Shown: positions 1,093 to 28,813 of the stretch, piece by piece
Numbering within the stretch: position 1 is the first letter of the stretch
Layout: every line of letters starts with the position of its first letter
Assembly: GCF_003991155.1 (NCBI RefSeq)
Contig: NZ_CP031293.1
Source: Escherichia coli
GTDB lineage: Bacteria > Pseudomonadota > Gammaproteobacteria > Enterobacterales > Enterobacteriaceae
Length of the DNA stretch: 64,000 bases
Direction: 5' to 3' (one strand)
The notes under the pieces: generated by a model
The model's database searches: none
Seen by the model: only the letters and a program-made list of their open reading frames with translations
What the model was told of the DNA's origin: nothing
Program-made: the position numbers and the translations under genes

Positions 1093-1156
1093 AAGAAAAC
1101 GCCTGTACTAAAACCGACCCGCGGTACAGGCGAAGAGTACGGGCCTACATCGGAAG
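1093..1156 (-). ncRNA. rydC: RydC small regulatory RNA (Hfq-dependent, pseudoknotted)
   Basis: Minus-strand sequence cttccgatgtaggcccgtactcttcgcctgtaccgcgggtcggttttagtacaggcgttttctt in the cybB-ydcA intergenic region matches my recollection of RydC; contains the stem cctgtac/gtacagg and a terminal U-run. Confidence 0.7.
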
Positions 1157-1571: not shown

Positions 1572-1779
<208 letters not shown>

Positions 1780-1820
1780 TCGTTGGCCTCGGTTTGTACT
1801 GACCCCAGAAAGTTGGACAG

Positions 1821-2672
1821 TTAAACACGAGGCATATAGGTCTGATTCCGATATTCAATTGGAGTCAGACCTTTTAATTTCAGGCTAATTCTTCTGCTGT
1901 TGTAGTATTCAATATATTCCGTAACAGCATCCTTCAGCTCGCTTATATTACTGAACTCATCAAGATAAAAACACTCCGACTTTAAGGTTCCAAAGAAACA
2001 CTCCACCACAGCATTATCCAGACAATTGCCTTTTCTGGACATGCTTTGTTTAATACCATGTTCTTTAAGGATATTTTGATATCTTCTCATACGATACTGC
2101 CATCCCTGGTCAGAGTGCAGAACAGGATGCTCGTGAGGATTAAGCTTTTTGAATGCCTGATCGAGCATATTCTCGACCATGTTCATCACTGGTCTTTCCG
2201 AAAGGCTGTAAGAAATAACTTCGTTGTTGAAGAGATCTATTACTGGAGACAAATACAGCTTGCGCCCATTGACTGCAAATTCAGTAACATCGGTAACCCA
2301 CTTCTCGTTTGGCCGCGTAGCCTTGAAATCTCTTTGGAGAACATTGGGGGCGGTTTGCCCTACCTCTCCTCTGTAAGAGCGGTATCGCTTGACCTTAATC
2401 GCTGCCTTCAGTGAGAGGATTCCCATCAGGCGCTGAACAGCTTTATGGTTAATCTGTTTCCCTTCTCGATGAAGAGACAGCGTTACCCTACGGTATCCGT
2501 ATCGGCCTCTATTCTCATGATAAATCTCACCAATACGCTTTTTAACGTCCGCATACTTGTCAGGCTTGCTGAGAGCCTTTAGATGGTAATAAAACGTACT
2601 GCGCGGTATCTCCGCAGCCCTGAGAAGCTCATCAAGAGGATAAAACTGCCTTAGCTCGTTGAGTACTTTCAC
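1821..2672 (-). CDS. insK: IS150 OrfB (InsK), DDE integrase-type transposase catalytic domain
   Basis: 283-aa ORF in the -1 frame relative to insJ, overlapping its 3' end; IS3-family catalytic domain. Confidence 0.9.
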
Positions 2673-3190
2673 TTTTTCGTGGGATGAGCTAAGGCTTTCA
2701 GCTTTTTTAGATACACAAGCCGCGTTTCAAGAAATCGAACTTGCCTTTCAAGATCCTCAATGCGTCGGTCTTTTGACAGCTCCAATGCTGATGCCGCTTT
2801 TTCTGGATCAACTGATATTGCAATGTTTCTTTTGGTGCCAATCTTGAGCGCGCGTAAACCAGCTTCTCCGCGCTCTTCATAAACCTTCAGCCACCTGGCT
2901 ACAGAACCACTACCAGCAAGCATAAAGTGAGCAGCAGCCTGATTAAGAGACATGTGCTGCTCGATCACAGCTTTCACGACCTTAATACGCAACTCAGGAT
3001 CAGCACTAACACCTTTAGGTTTGGGAATTAAACCTTTTTCTCCATGTTTTTCATAGAGGGCAACCCATGTCCTGACCTGGGTTCGGGGGACACCAAAACG
3101 TGCCGAGATGATCCTGTAACCATCATCAGTAGTGAAGTAGTGATTCACGACTTCAAGGCGCTTTTCAAAAGGGTATTTTGGCTTTGACAT
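2669..3190 (-). CDS. insJ: IS150 OrfA (InsJ), HTH DNA-binding transposase component
   Basis: 173-aa ORF MSKPKYPFEKRLEVVNHYFTTDDGYRIISARFGVPRTQVRTW..., recognised as IS150 InsJ. Confidence 0.9.
   Translation of the reverse strand: MSKPKYPFEKRLEVVNHYFTTDDGYRIISARFGVPRTQVRTWVALYEKHGEKGLIPKPKGVSADPELRIKVVKAVIEQHMSLNQAAAHFMLAGSGSVARWLKVYEERGEAGLRALKIGTKRNIAISVDPEKAASALELSKDRRIEDLERQVRFLETRLVYLKKLKALAHPTKK
2702..2708 (-). promoter_or_regulatory. Programmed -1 ribosomal frameshift heptamer A_AAA_AAG for InsJK fusion transposase
   Basis: Plus-strand cttttttag at 2702-2710 is AAAAAAG on the coding strand, inside the insJ/insK overlap. Confidence 0.7.
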
Positions 3191-3567
3191 ATCAGGGGCT
3201 ATTCCATTTCATCGTCCAACAAAATGGGTGCAGTACACAGTTGATAGAAATATTGGTCGGGGCCTTCGTCTTTCTGATTCCCGGTTAGCCTGAAAACAGA
3301 AAGTCTCAGGCACCCGTGAGCATCCTATGTGGTTTCCTTAAGGACGAAAATAATCACCTGACGAAATTGCGTGCTGTTTTCCAGAATTTTTCGTCATTCG
3401 GTTTAGCCAGTTTAATCATTCGTTACTCTCTTCATTCCAATGGCATTATTCTTCTCTGCCATAATTGTTGTAAAAATGTGACGCAAAGAGGTTTTTGGTC
3501 GTAAGAAATTACCGTCAAGTGCCGATGACTTTCTATCAGGAGTAAACCTGGAAGAGAGACAACGGTA

Positions 3568-20164: not shown

Positions 20165-20339
20165 CCCGCCACCTTTTTCTAACCTTTTGCCGCTATGATG
20201 CCAATCGTTTCTTGAGGTTATTATTCAGTTTTGCAAATTAGAGCAAAGAAATTCTGGAATCTTCCTTCCTGATTTTGCATTGCATTCTGCCGTTGCGGCG
20301 ATTTAGTGCTATTTTCGAGCACATTACACACGGAGGTAA

Positions 20340-20375
<36 letters not shown>

Positions 20376-20484
20376 AGGCAAGGAGTTATCGCTGGTGATG
20401 GTTTGATAACAGTTAATGAAAAGTTGTCATTTTTAACAACTGATATAGACTGCCGAATCACCTGCACATAATAACGATTCGATA

Positions 20485-26059: not shown

Positions 26060-27484
26060 ATGCAACATAAGTTACTGATTAACGGAGAACTGGTTAGCGG
26101 CGAAGGGGAAAAACAGCCTGTCTATAATCCGGCAACGGGGGACGTTTTACTGGAGATTGCCGAGGCATCCGCAGAGCAGGTCGATGCTGCTGTGCGCGCG
26201 GCAGATGCAGCATTTGCCGAATGGGGGCAAACCACGCCGAAAGTGCGTGCGGAATGTCTGCTGAAACTGGCTGATGTTATCGAAGAAAATGGTCAGGTTT
26301 TTGCCGAACTGGAGTCCCGTAATTGTGGCAAACCACTGCATAGTGCGTTCAATGATGAAATCCCGGCGATTGTCGATGTCTTTCGCTTTTTCGCGGGTGC
26401 GGCGCGCTGTCTGAATGGTCTGGCGGCAGGTGAATATCTTGAAGGTCATACTTCGATGATCCGTCGCGATCCGTTGGGGGTCGTGGCTTCTATCGCACCG
26501 TGGAATTATCCGCTGATGATGGCCGCGTGGAAACTGGCTCCGGCGCTGGCGGCAGGGAACTGCGTAGTGCTTAAACCATCAGAAATTACCCCGCTGACCG
26601 CGTTGAAGTTGGCAGAGCTGGCGAAAGATATCTTCCCGGCAGGCGTGATTAACGTACTGTTTGGCAGAGGCAAAACGGTGGGCGATCCGCTGACCGGACA
26701 TCCTAAAGTGCGGATGGTGTCGCTGACGGGCTCTATCGCCACCGGCGAGCACATCATCAGCCATACCGCGCCGTCGATTAAGCGTACTCATATGGAACTT
26801 GGTGGCAAAGCGCCAGTGATTGTTTTTGATGATGCGGATATTGAAGCAGTGGTCGAAGGTGTACGTACTTTTGGCTATTACAATGCCGGACAGGATTGTA
26901 CAGCGGCTTGTCGGATCTACGCGCAAAAAGGCATTTACGATACGCTGGTGGAAAAACTCGGTGCTGCGGTGGCAACGTTAAAATCGGGTGCACCGGCTGA
27001 CGAGTCTACGGAGCTTGGACCTTTAAGCTCGCTGGCGCATCTCGAACGCGTCAGCAAGGCGGTAGAAGAGGCGAAAGCGACAGGGCACATCAAAGTGATC
27101 ACCGGTGGTGAAAAGCGCAAGGGTAATGGCTATTACTATGCGCCGACGCTACTGGCTGGCGCATTACAGGATGATGCCATCGTGCAAAAAGAGGTATTTG
27201 GTCCGGTAGTGAGTGTTACGCTCTTCGACAACGAAGAACAGGTGGTGAACTGGGCGAATGACAGTCAGTACGGACTTGCATCCTCGGTATGGACGAAAGA
27301 TGTGGGCAGGGCGCATCGCGTCAGCGCGCGGCTGCAATATGGTTGTACCTGGGTCAATACCCATTTCATGCTGGTAAGTGAAATGCCGCACGGTGGGCAG
27401 AAACTTTCTGGTTACGGCAAGGATATGTCACTTTATGGGCTGGAGGATTACACCGTCGTCCGCCACGTCATGGTTAAACATTAA
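26060..27484 (+). CDS. patD: Gamma-aminobutyraldehyde dehydrogenase (aldehyde dehydrogenase family)
   Basis: 474 aa; ALDH motifs including catalytic Cys in GQDCTAAC and ELGGKAP. Confidence 0.9.
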
Positions 27485-27525
27485 GGATAATATTGCAGAT
27501 CGTAAGAGTATGAGATGATCTTGCG

Positions 27526-27560
27526 TACTGTCAGAGCACTGATTTCTCTGACAGTACGTG
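27526..27560. terminator. Bidirectional hairpin terminator between patD and yncL
   Basis: Stem tactgtcagag (27526-27536) pairs with ctctgacagta (27550-27560) around a 13-nt loop. Confidence 0.6.
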
Positions 27561-27580
27561 CTGCGTGCAAAATCACTACA

Positions 27581-27676
27581 TCAAATAAACCAGCCAAATC
27601 TCATAGAGATAAGAGTAAACAAACCAACAGCAGCAAAGACATTTATCAGTACTACAGTTCTACTGGAAACATTCAT
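27581..27676 (-). CDS. yncL: Small membrane protein YncL (31 aa)
   Basis: Minus-strand ATG at 27676: MNVSSRTVVLINVFAAVGLFTLISMRFGWFI, stop at 27581; single predicted TM helix; below the ORF-track cutoff. Confidence 0.7.
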   Translation of the reverse strand: MNVSSRTVVLINVFAAVGLFTLISMRFGWFI

Positions 27677-27870
27677 TTTTGCCACCTTTTATCATTGCCC
27701 CTATGTGTATAGTACGGGTTAAGAAAATCCGCAATAATACTCATTCTGAAGATGGATAAGGACAAGTTGCTGTTTGATGATTTTTTCTCAAACTGGTGAA
27801 AAAACTTGATGCACGTCAAAAAATGACGCATATTTGCGCGCGTTTTATTCATCTGGCTGGACGCCCGTAC

Positions 27871-28044
27871 ATGTCTCTCTATCAACACATGCTTGTTTTT
27901 TATGCGGTTATGGCAGCAATCGCATTTCTTATCACCTGGTTTCTTTCTCACGATAAGAAACGCATCCGTTTCTTAAGCGCCTTTCTGGTGGGGGCAACAT
28001 GGCCGATGAGTTTCCCGGTGGCGCTGTTATTTTCACTGTTTTAA
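27871..28044 (+). CDS. ortT: Orphan toxin OrtT (GhoT-like small membrane toxin, 57 aa)
   Basis: Start at MSLYQHMLVFYAVMAAIAFLITWFLSHDKK...; two TM helices; no adjacent antitoxin ORF. Confidence 0.75.
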   Translation: MSLYQHMLVFYAVMAAIAFLITWFLSHDKKRIRFLSAFLVGATWPMSFPVALLFSLF

Positions 28045-28129
28045 ATCTTACTCACTGGCTTGACGGCACCACGCAGACTTATATCATTTGGATGAATCGA
28101 TAAATTTCACAAGTGGCTAAGGAGAAAGT

Positions 28130-28363
28130 ATGTCGCATCTGGATGAAGTCATCGCGCGCGTGGATGCCGCGATTGAAGAGAGCGTCATTGCCCATATGAA
28201 CGAATTATTAATCGCCCTGAGCGATGACGCGGAGTTAAGTCGGGAAGATCGCTACACCCAGCAGCAGCGTTTGCGCACCGCTATTGCTCATCACGGTCGC
28301 AAGCATAAAGAAGATATGGAAGCGCGTCATGAACAGTTAACCAAAGGCGGCACCATCCTGTGA
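28130..28363 (+). CDS. ydcY: Uncharacterised small protein YdcY
   Basis: 77-aa ORF MSHLDEVIARVDAAIEESVIAHMNELL... Confidence 0.75.
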   Translation: MSHLDEVIARVDAAIEESVIAHMNELLIALSDDAELSREDRYTQQQRLRTAIAHHGRKHKEDMEARHEQLTKGGTIL

Positions 28364-28813
28364 TTAAAATGAGCGTCTGGCTACCAACCAGGCGCCAACC
28401 ACAAGTAAAATTGCGCCACAAATTGGGCCGAACAACGCCCGTAGTGGTACGCCATGACTGCGGAAGATATCCAGAACCAGACCGCCAATCAGCTGGCTGG
28501 CGACCAGTACTGCAATAGTTGTCGCCGCTCCCACATTCTGATATCCGCTGATACTGGCGAAGACAAAAAACGATCCCAGCAAGCCAGGTATAAGTGTCCA
28601 CCAGCGCACGCTGGACACCAGTTCGCCAAACCCCGCCATACCTTGTTTAAACCATAAAATAGAAACAAAGAGCACAATCCCCACCAGTGAGTTCAGCAAC
28701 ATGGCGATGAGAATGGTAGAGGAGGTCTGGGTGATGCGCACCATCAGCGTGTTCTGGACTACCAGACCAATTCCGGCGGCAATCAAAAAGGCAAGGGTGA
28801 GCGACTGATTCAT
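28364..28813 (-). CDS. ydcZ: DMT-superfamily inner membrane protein YdcZ
   Basis: 149-aa hydrophobic ORF; start overlaps the mnaT stop. Confidence 0.8.
   Translation of the reverse strand: MNQSLTLAFLIAAGIGLVVQNTLMVRITQTSSTILIAMLLNSLVGIVLFVSILWFKQGMAGFGELVSSVRWWTLIPGLLGSFFVFASISGYQNVGAATTIAVLVASQLIGGLVLDIFRSHGVPLRALFGPICGAILLVVGAWLVARRSF

Follow-up and report, generated by a model that had tools for sequence, protein, structure and literature searches.

ortT of Escherichia coli, a conserved chromosomal gene for a GhoT/OrtT-family membrane peptide without an antitoxin at its locus

The stretch of Escherichia coli DNA that was analysed (64,000 nucleotides, hereafter the window) contains the coding sequence of ortT (ydcX) at positions 27871..28044 on the plus strand. 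The gene was identified from the open reading frame listing, the protein family profile PF10753, identity to the OrtT protein of K-12 and the RefSeq annotation. The reading frame starts with ATG and consists of 57 codons and a stop codon, with the predicted product MSLYQHMLVFYAVMAAIAFLITWFLSHDKKRIRFLSAFLVGATWPMSFPVALLFSLF. An 82-aa frame reading from an alternative GTG at 27796 was rejected, as this start lies upstream of the conserved -35 hexamer described below. The upstream 'extensions' that gene callers had added to the orthologues in other genera were also rejected, being without conservation at the protein level. [quoted passage not shown]

A Pfam profile search matched the protein to PF10753 (Toxin_GhoT_OrtT) with E = 8.3e-28 and a score of 96.9 bits, against a curated cut-off of 22.1 bits. 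Residues 4-57 covered positions 1-55 of the 55 in the profile, which represents a full-length family match. A score so far beyond chance excludes a chance open reading frame at 27871..28044. The protein is identical to K-12 OrtT (b1445) at 57/57 residues (100%), and an ungapped alignment with K-12 GhoT showed 36/57 identical residues (63%). The first-pass annotation, which had named the product as the 57-aa peptide OrtT and called it GhoT-like, was therefore right on both points. ortT belongs to PF10753, and all of the defining family features that could be tested were found in it.

From the start of yncL to the start of ydcY, 451/453 bases are the same as in K-12, one of the two changes being intergenic and the other synonymous; experiments performed in K-12 therefore transfer to the OrtT studied here. 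The K-12 gene (YdcX, b1445) encodes the same protein among the same neighbours, patD, yncL, ydcY and ydcZ, and there is no substantive difference between the two loci. A stretch of 901 bases around ortT, in which the RefSeq labels are yncL, ortT ('orphan toxin OrtT'), ydcY and ydcZ, was present in 5415/5426 complete E. coli genomes, nearly always as a single chromosomal copy. Collinearity with NZ_AP021933.1 (2267259-2331258) extends over all 64 kb of the window, with differences at 8 positions, so the annotation of that record can be carried over position by position; at the equivalent coordinates, RefSeq again reports 'orphan toxin OrtT'. The exact protein sequence was found on at least 1000 public contigs, under the name ORTT_ECOLI. 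The feature is thus ortT (ydcX), which has already been characterised and is known as a core gene of the E. coli chromosome.

The neighbours of ortT are yncL and ydcY, as had been claimed for them. The yncL gene (27581..27676, minus strand) is divergent from ortT and encodes a 31-aa stress-induced small membrane protein, recognised by the NCBIfam YncL equivalog model with E = 1.8e-20. Cells that produce YncL have a depolarised membrane and a condensed nucleoid (PMC12542507, 2025). Downstream lies ydcY (DUF2526; 28130..28363, plus strand), which matched PF10735 with E = 1e-46. It has a sigma-70-like promoter of its own in the ortT-ydcY spacer (TTGACG-16 nt-TATCAT, 28060..28087, plus strand), found by the promoter scan with 10/12 consensus positions. 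No terminator-like site was found between ortT and ydcY in the scan, and read-through is possible.

The divergent yncL gene adjoins ortT in Escherichia, Salmonella, Citrobacter (two loci), Intestinirhabdus and one metagenomic contig (L013), and YncL itself was detected in these same loci. In Salmonella and Citrobacter, the yncL/ortT pair is located downstream of a region encoding a patD-type aldehyde dehydrogenase. The gene 3' of ortT changes between genera: in Salmonella, Citrobacter and Intestinirhabdus, srfB/srfC-type genes are present instead of ydcY, and still other genes take this place elsewhere. A tblastn search of the fetched loci detected YdcY in those from Escherichia and in no others. 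Buttiauxella has a DUF1508 gene beside ortT in the place of yncL, and Kosakonia has two tandem PF10753 members with no adjacent yncL. ortT is a vertically inherited core gene with a stable chromosomal position downstream of patD in several enterobacterial genera. Of its neighbours, yncL is the sole recurrent one and ydcY is incidental; YdcY was rejected as a conserved partner of OrtT on the basis of both the synteny and published co-expression (PMC4344625).

Two further loci with toxin-type genes are present in the window. A HokB reading frame (1572-1721, minus strand; PF01848) belongs to a hokB locus that is split by IS150 in this strain, and a HigB-like toxin gene (63531-63809, minus strand; PF05015) is accompanied by an HTH antitoxin gene at 63247-63531. 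The first-pass annotation had seen in hokB, the higB-like gene and ortT a density of toxin-type genes. The hokB and higB-like reading frames are indeed there, and no functional meaning of the grouping was demonstrated: both loci are 26-36 kb from ortT, are of unrelated types, and the hokB/sokB locus is disrupted by IS150.

The hydropathy profile of OrtT showed hydrophobic segments at approximately 7-25 and 34-57, separated by a charged loop, SHDKKRIR. An AlphaFold2 model, for which a 20-sequence family alignment was supplied, gave a helical hairpin with helices at 3-25 and 30-56 (mean pLDDT of 84), and the two transmembrane segments ascribed to the peptide agree with both analyses. The positively charged loop presumably lies on the cytoplasmic side. 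The length of approximately 57 aa, the two transmembrane helices, the short charged loop and the second-helix motif of the family were all found; the motif residues present are R33, L35, G41, T43-W44-P45, S47, P49 and F57. Residue Phe38 is also present and is conserved in both E. coli paralogues, OrtT and GhoT. Across the family, GhoT included, R33, L35, L39, G41, T43-W44-P45, S47, P49, A51-L52, S55 and F57 show little or no variation, and the motif G-x-T-W-P-x-S-x-P was almost invariant in the 20-sequence alignment.

Comparison of ortT between genera gave pN values of 0.06-0.15 and pS values of 0.57-0.94, the synonymous sites being near saturation, and the dN/dS ratio was 0.04-0.15 where dS could be estimated. 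The gene is under strong purifying selection, and the second helix was its most constrained part in most comparisons. A gene this conserved, whose product has a proline-rich and invariant second helix, may well encode a protein with its own specific structure or partner rather than a generic disruptor of membranes. The locus is unlike that of a typical mobile toxin, being near-universal in E. coli, syntenic across genera and under strong purifying selection.

A promoter-like element was identified upstream of ortT at 27806..27842 (plus strand) by its conservation in seven orthologous loci, from Escherichia, Intestinirhabdus, Salmonella, Citrobacter, Kosakonia, Buttiauxella and one metagenomic contig. 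It consists of a -35 hexamer TTGATG (27806-27811), a 17-nt spacer and a -10 hexamer CATATT (27829-27834), directly followed by a GC-rich discriminator, TGCGCGCG, at 27835-27842. The core TTG.T ... GCATA.TT is invariant in the seven loci, and the flanks diverge. The element matches the sigma-70 consensus at 8/12 positions, which is under the threshold of the scanner, and it was hence missed by the scan. TTGATG-17-CATATT is the putative main promoter of ortT, and any sigma factor assigned to it is equally putative. Transcription would start near 27841-27843, giving a leader of approximately 29 nt with a weak GGA Shine-Dalgarno sequence.

The yncL-ortT spacer contains two conserved blocks, one near each gene. 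The block proximal to yncL, which is conserved in Escherichia, Salmonella and Citrobacter, resembles a promoter read on the minus strand (27706..27734; TTGCGG-17 nt-TATACA), with a C just before the -10 hexamer (CTATACA), a sigma-S-like signature. A genomic SELEX study of the RpoS holoenzyme lists a peak with an intensity of 28.5 in the yncL<>ydcX spacer (Shimada et al. 2017, PMC5493296); among the entries displayed there, it exceeds the neighbouring ones, and the assay is blind to which of the promoters is bound.

Several reports describe the expression of ortT. Up-regulation of ydcX has been noted once cultures leave early log phase (2018 preprint, bioRxiv 10.1101/310961). In qRT-PCR measurements by a single laboratory (two biological replicates), the ortT mRNA was induced 89 +/- 80-fold by serine hydroxamate, 4.6-fold by mupirocin and 3.1-fold by trimethoprim, and was raised 2.3-fold by production of RelA and 2.0-fold by heat shock (PMC4344625). 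The sigma-E and sigma-H promoters given for ortT in that paper are predictions, with only the 2-fold heat response behind them (PMC4344625). In Escherichia, Salmonella and Citrobacter, the sequence GCGCGCG stands right after the conserved -10 hexamer of ortT. A GC-rich discriminator is a mark of promoters that are inhibited, not activated, by ppGpp/DksA. The reported stringent induction would thus be indirect (for example, via RpoS) or would come from another promoter.

No antitoxin gene was identified beside ortT, in agreement with the initial reading of the locus. A tblastn search for GhoS in six frames of the whole 64-kb window returned only noise (best E = 0.26), and PADLOC gave no match for OrtT, YdcY or YncL. 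Among the 23 sequences searched, GhoS was detected solely at the K-12 ghoST locus. A GhoS gene (PF11080) was found beside a PF10753 gene in none of 11 distinct contexts except K-12 ghoST, in a small sample that comprised ortT orthologues and divergent members 40-51% identical to OrtT. The family is itself small: an HMMER search of 1.84 billion cluster representatives gave only 52 matches at E <= 0.001, and all of the source-named relatives among the matches listed were from enterobacterial genera. In this limited sample, genes that stand alone appear to be the rule in PF10753, and pairing with GhoS the exception. A GhoS-sized 97-aa reading frame upstream of the Kosakonia ortT pair was considered as a possible antitoxin gene and rejected, being without GhoS similarity or a Pfam match; it has a signal-peptide-like N-terminus and its own terminator-like hairpin after it.

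The search for an RNA partner was also negative. In the whole window, the Rfam scan at gathering thresholds gave only RydC, sok and the fdnG SECIS element, all away from ortT, and a permissive scan (E <= 1) of 27400-28500 gave no match. The predicted folds of the ortT leader (27843-27930) and of the mRNA (27843-28129) were no more stable than those of shuffled sequences (z = 0.58 and 0.01, respectively). No minus-strand promoter-like site was found by the promoter scan inside or just after ortT. A weak minus-strand terminator-like hairpin is present at 27843-27826; it is not conserved in Salmonella or Citrobacter, and the terminator-like sites found numbered 2 against a chance expectation of 1.1. 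An antisense promoter or terminator at ortT was rejected on these grounds.

ortT does not qualify as a module of type V, type I or type II. The adjacent co-transcribed GhoS-type gene (PF11080) of a type V system is absent, with yncL divergent upstream and ydcY downstream. The antisense RNA and long structured leader of a type I system were absent from the computational analyses, which a transcript could escape. There is no small antitoxin gene in an operon with ortT, as would be expected of type II: yncL is divergent, and the candidate ydcY carries a promoter-like site of its own and keeps its place next to ortT only within Escherichia.

The same protein has been studied experimentally in K-12 BW25113 by Islam, Benedik and Wood (Toxins 2015, PMC4344625). 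Expression of OrtT from pCA24N halted growth and was lytic; an ATG to ACG change of the start codon abolished the toxicity, which showed the protein to be the toxin, and the F38R substitution reduced it. Within two hours of overproduction, 99.99% of the cells had lysed; electron microscopy (TEM) showed membrane damage, enlargement of the periplasm, condensation of the nucleoid and cells that had emptied, and ATP was down 27-fold (PMC4344625). Persistence was raised 430-fold for ampicillin and 27-fold for ciprofloxacin. Deletion of ortT resulted in more growth and metabolism under trimethoprim or sulfamethoxazole, again in one laboratory with two biological replicates (PMC4344625). The first-pass annotation had named an overexpression assay as its check, with a lack of toxicity as the result that would speak against it; for the identical K-12 protein that assay is already published, and the outcome was toxicity. 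The label of 'toxin' rests largely on IPTG-driven multicopy expression. Many small hydrophobic peptides are toxic when expressed in this way.

The other check that had been proposed, a search for an antisense RNA or partner gene, was also made in the 2015 study; at the present locus, neither Rfam, folding nor the GhoS search gave one. Cells were not rescued from OrtT by co-expressed YdcY or GhoS, nor by a 772-bp native fragment in which an inactivated ortT was flanked by its two intergenic regions (PMC4344625). A genomic library (approximately 3x coverage), for which inserts of 622 bp were directionally cloned behind ortT, gave no antitoxin, and only ortT-defective plasmids were recovered (PMC4344625). 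The 'UTR' construct of that study begins inside yncL at approximately codon 8 (primer UTR-F), so intact yncL was assayed via the 3x library alone.

Of the known systems, GhoT of the type V module GhoST is the closest to OrtT. Both proteins have 57 aa, match PF10753, and have two predicted transmembrane helices and Phe38, and overproduction of either causes membrane damage, loss of ATP and lysis (PMC4344625). They differ in genetic setting and regulation: ghoT comes second in a ghoS-ghoT operon, ortT is monocistronic and lacks a nearby GhoS gene, and GhoS, the antitoxin in GhoST, fails to neutralise OrtT (PMC4344625). The ortT mRNA has two GCU sites for MqsR (27891 and 28023), and ghoT is reported to be without them (PMC4344625). 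The deletion phenotypes also differ, that of ghoT concerning carbenicillin and cefoxitin and that of ortT trimethoprim and sulfamethoxazole.

The type I toxins (Hok/Gef, TisB, Ldr and Ibs) are, like OrtT, small hydrophobic peptides of the inner membrane. When produced, type I membrane toxins dissipate the proton-motive force and promote persistence. They have no sequence relationship to OrtT and are controlled by antisense RNA antitoxins and long structured leaders, neither of which was detectable for ortT. YncL and YohP (Hemm et al. 2010, cited in PMC12542507) are, like OrtT, short hydrophobic inner-membrane peptides of stress or stationary phase that have no antitoxin. Their production lowers the membrane potential and condenses the nucleoid (PMC12542507), and a condensed nucleoid was also seen by TEM with OrtT (PMC4344625). 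Unlike OrtT, which has 57 aa and two transmembrane segments, they have approximately 30 aa and one transmembrane segment, with no sequence similarity to it, and their effects are sublethal, whereas overproduced OrtT is reported to be lytic. The traits of a stress-induced small membrane protein that OrtT displays at this locus are its size, its topology and the absence of a partner gene; its induction and the drop in ATP are known from the literature. OrtT works like GhoT and, more loosely, like the Hok/TisB toxins and the YohP/YncL proteins.

We consider it highly probable that ortT encodes a hairpin inner-membrane peptide of the GhoT/OrtT family that has no antitoxin, is controlled mainly at the level of transcription, and damages the membrane and the ATP supply when its level is raised. 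The gene would be transcribed from its own conserved promoter, approximately 35-65 bp upstream of the start codon, and its transcription rises in the late-exponential and stationary phases, under amino-acid starvation or the stringent response, and on heat shock. The 57-residue hairpin would then insert in the inner membrane. At a raised level, the peptide would compromise the inner membrane, collapse the proton-motive force and lower ATP, so that growth and metabolism would be slowed, with lysis at a high dose. As there is no antitoxin, the dose would be set by transcription. The route of membrane damage may be the same at native levels as on overexpression.

Four other explanations were weighed. 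The one that deserves the most attention, and which we still regard as unlikely, is that OrtT serves primarily as a stress-induced small membrane protein whose role is dosed and non-lethal, its designation as a toxin being an artefact of overexpression; that role might be a sublethal depolarisation, as for YohP and YncL, or the modulation of a specific membrane protein. Such a role is consistent with the status of ortT as a core gene of nearly all E. coli, with its vertical inheritance and its synteny across genera, with strong purifying selection and a nearly invariant TWPxSxP motif, and with the lack of an accompanying antitoxin in the PF10753 members sampled. It also fits a deletion phenotype of a mild shift in growth and metabolism, and not one of survival, and the effects of YncL and the unrelated YohP near native levels, namely membrane depolarisation and a condensed nucleoid (PMC12542507), the latter being seen with overproduced OrtT too. 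However, the 99.99% lysis and 27-fold drop in ATP are harsher than what is reported for YohP and YncL, the paralogue GhoT needs an antitoxin in the same cell, and no protein that interacts with OrtT is known. This explanation and the preferred reading differ mostly in emphasis; they share the sequence facts and place OrtT in different biological categories. The idea of a hidden partner, by which the divergent YncL or a factor encoded elsewhere would antagonise or modulate OrtT in the membrane as part of a two-component module, is improbable in our judgement. It would account for the retention of the yncL(-)/ortT(+) arrangement in Escherichia, Salmonella, Citrobacter, Intestinirhabdus and L013 and for a shared control region of approximately 194 bp in which the displayed SELEX data place an RpoS-holoenzyme peak (PMC5493296). 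The screens of 2015 also leave room for it, as the UTR construct lacked an intact yncL (PMC4344625) and, by our estimate, the approximately 3x library would have lacked a usable yncL clone with a probability of roughly 10-30%. Nevertheless, no yncL lies beside ortT in Buttiauxella and Kosakonia or beside the distant family members, the library screen gave just ortT-defective plasmids (PMC4344625), and YncL is itself depolarising, which fits an additive better than a neutralising action (PMC12542507).

Descent of ortT from a decayed type V module, as a ghoST duplicate minus ghoS, is very improbable. It is suggested by the 63% identity and equal length of OrtT and GhoT and by the presence of both in E. 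coli. No GhoS remnant was detectable in the window by tblastn, however, and the other ten PF10753 contexts, including members 40-50% identical, are without GhoS; this absence from the sampled family contexts argues against the loss of an antitoxin from a ghoST duplicate, although the 11-context sample is small and does not prove the direction of ghoST/ortT evolution. The site of ortT downstream of patD is, moreover, conserved across genera, and GhoS does not neutralise OrtT (PMC4344625). Least credible of all is a type I toxin under an unrecognised cis-antisense or adjacent small RNA, to which we give hardly any weight. The peptide is small and hydrophobic like Hok, TisB and Ldr, and a weak minus-strand terminator-like hairpin does lie at 27843-27826. 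Against this, the hairpin is not conserved and terminator-like sites were near their chance frequency, no minus-strand promoter-like site was found in or after ortT, and Rfam gave no match at E <= 1 around the gene. The inferred leader of approximately 29 nt and the mRNA are without excess structure, unlike type I leaders, the spacer 3' of ortT varies between genera as the neighbouring gene changes, and the 772-bp native fragment gave no relief of toxicity (PMC4344625).

RefSeq, UniProt, Pfam and PMC4344625 already record the gene, the family to which it belongs, its toxicity and the lack of an antitoxin. The synteny with yncL, the GhoS-free family contexts, the purifying selection and the conserved promoter-like element go beyond that study. 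The conserved element suggests that the control of ortT is transcriptional and is exerted from this candidate promoter. A more speculative extension, which we think improbable, is that yncL and ortT form a two-peptide membrane module with a shared control region bound by the RpoS holoenzyme, in which YncL tunes OrtT as an antagonist or a cooperator; if true, this would explain how a lytic peptide has been retained without a classical antitoxin. OrtT is among the few experimentally examined membrane 'toxins' that are kept as a strictly conserved core gene without an antitoxin. The comparative data also suggest that the choice between the names 'orphan toxin' and 'stress-induced small membrane protein' is mostly a matter of semantics. 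Studies of OrtT and GhoT could accordingly shift to their physiology at native levels, away from overexpression.

The hokB gene had been listed by the first-pass annotation among the toxin-type genes of the window. Alignment with K-12 identified an extra 1445-bp copy of IS150 at window positions 1795-3239. The two alignments flanking the insertion have 3 bp in common, which suggests a target duplication at this site. IS150 has inserted within both the sokB RNA gene, as annotated, and the leader of hokB/mokB, with the start of mokB approximately 15 nt downstream of the insertion point, and an Rfam match to sok was found at 3161-3315 on the minus strand. Splitting of the same sort has long been known at other K-12 hok loci. 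The inclusion of hokB as a toxin-type gene therefore holds for its ORF, which is still intact (1572-1721, minus strand), but the locus as a whole is divided by IS150 and is probably disabled in this strain.

The higB-like toxin gene in the same count was confirmed as an intact 92-aa ORF with a PF05015 match, paired with an HTH antitoxin (63247-63809, minus strand). The antitoxin is YddM, an HTH protein annotated as belonging to the HigA family; the two ORFs overlap by one base (63531) and the pair adjoins adhP. Between yncJ and ydcR, where K-12 carries the hicAB toxin-antitoxin pair, only a short HicB antitoxin remnant was present (20329-20406, plus strand). The remnant is annotated as a pseudogene with a missing N-terminus, and the 43-aa ORF covering it showed no Pfam match. 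An Rfam scan of the window identified two ordinary RNA elements, the RydC sRNA (1093-1156, minus strand) and the selenocysteine insertion element within fdnG (59188-59246, plus strand).

The divergent arrangement of yncL and ortT (window 27581-27870) is conserved in at least four genera, and was seen in loci of Salmonella (L006), Citrobacter (L007) and Intestinirhabdus (L012) and in a metagenomic contig (L013). The spacer common to both genes contains an RpoS-holoenzyme SELEX peak (PMC5493296), and membrane depolarisation has also been reported for YncL (PMC12542507). Intact yncL was not co-expressed with ortT in the 2015 ortT study (PMC4344625).

Directly after the conserved ortT -10 lies a GC-rich discriminator, TGCGCGCG (27835-27842), and a GC-rich discriminator is present at this position in Escherichia, Salmonella and Citrobacter. 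Such a discriminator is a classical mark of promoters inhibited by ppGpp/DksA. This signature is at odds with the reported induction of ortT by triggers of the stringent response (PMC4344625).

The GhoT/OrtT family (PF10753) is very small; a search of 1.84 billion proteins with OrtT as the query returned 52 cluster representatives (50% identity) at E <= 0.001. Some Enterobacteriaceae carry two paralogues at the ortT locus, in tandem in Kosakonia (L011, 4001-4183 and 4270-4443) and on either side of yncL in the metagenomic contig (L013, 823-996 and 1652-1840). GhoS was absent from both of these loci. A divergent family gene was found at 3001-3177 in two further contexts (L019 and L020), with 46% identity across the portion that aligns. 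It lies in a prophage late region, with an antiterminator-Q gene on one side and a holin-lysozyme pair on the other, and the L020 context also contains a gene for a heat-stable enterotoxin (ST), approximately 2.5 kb away. A family member carried by a phage may serve as an accessory to lysis or represent a moron gene.
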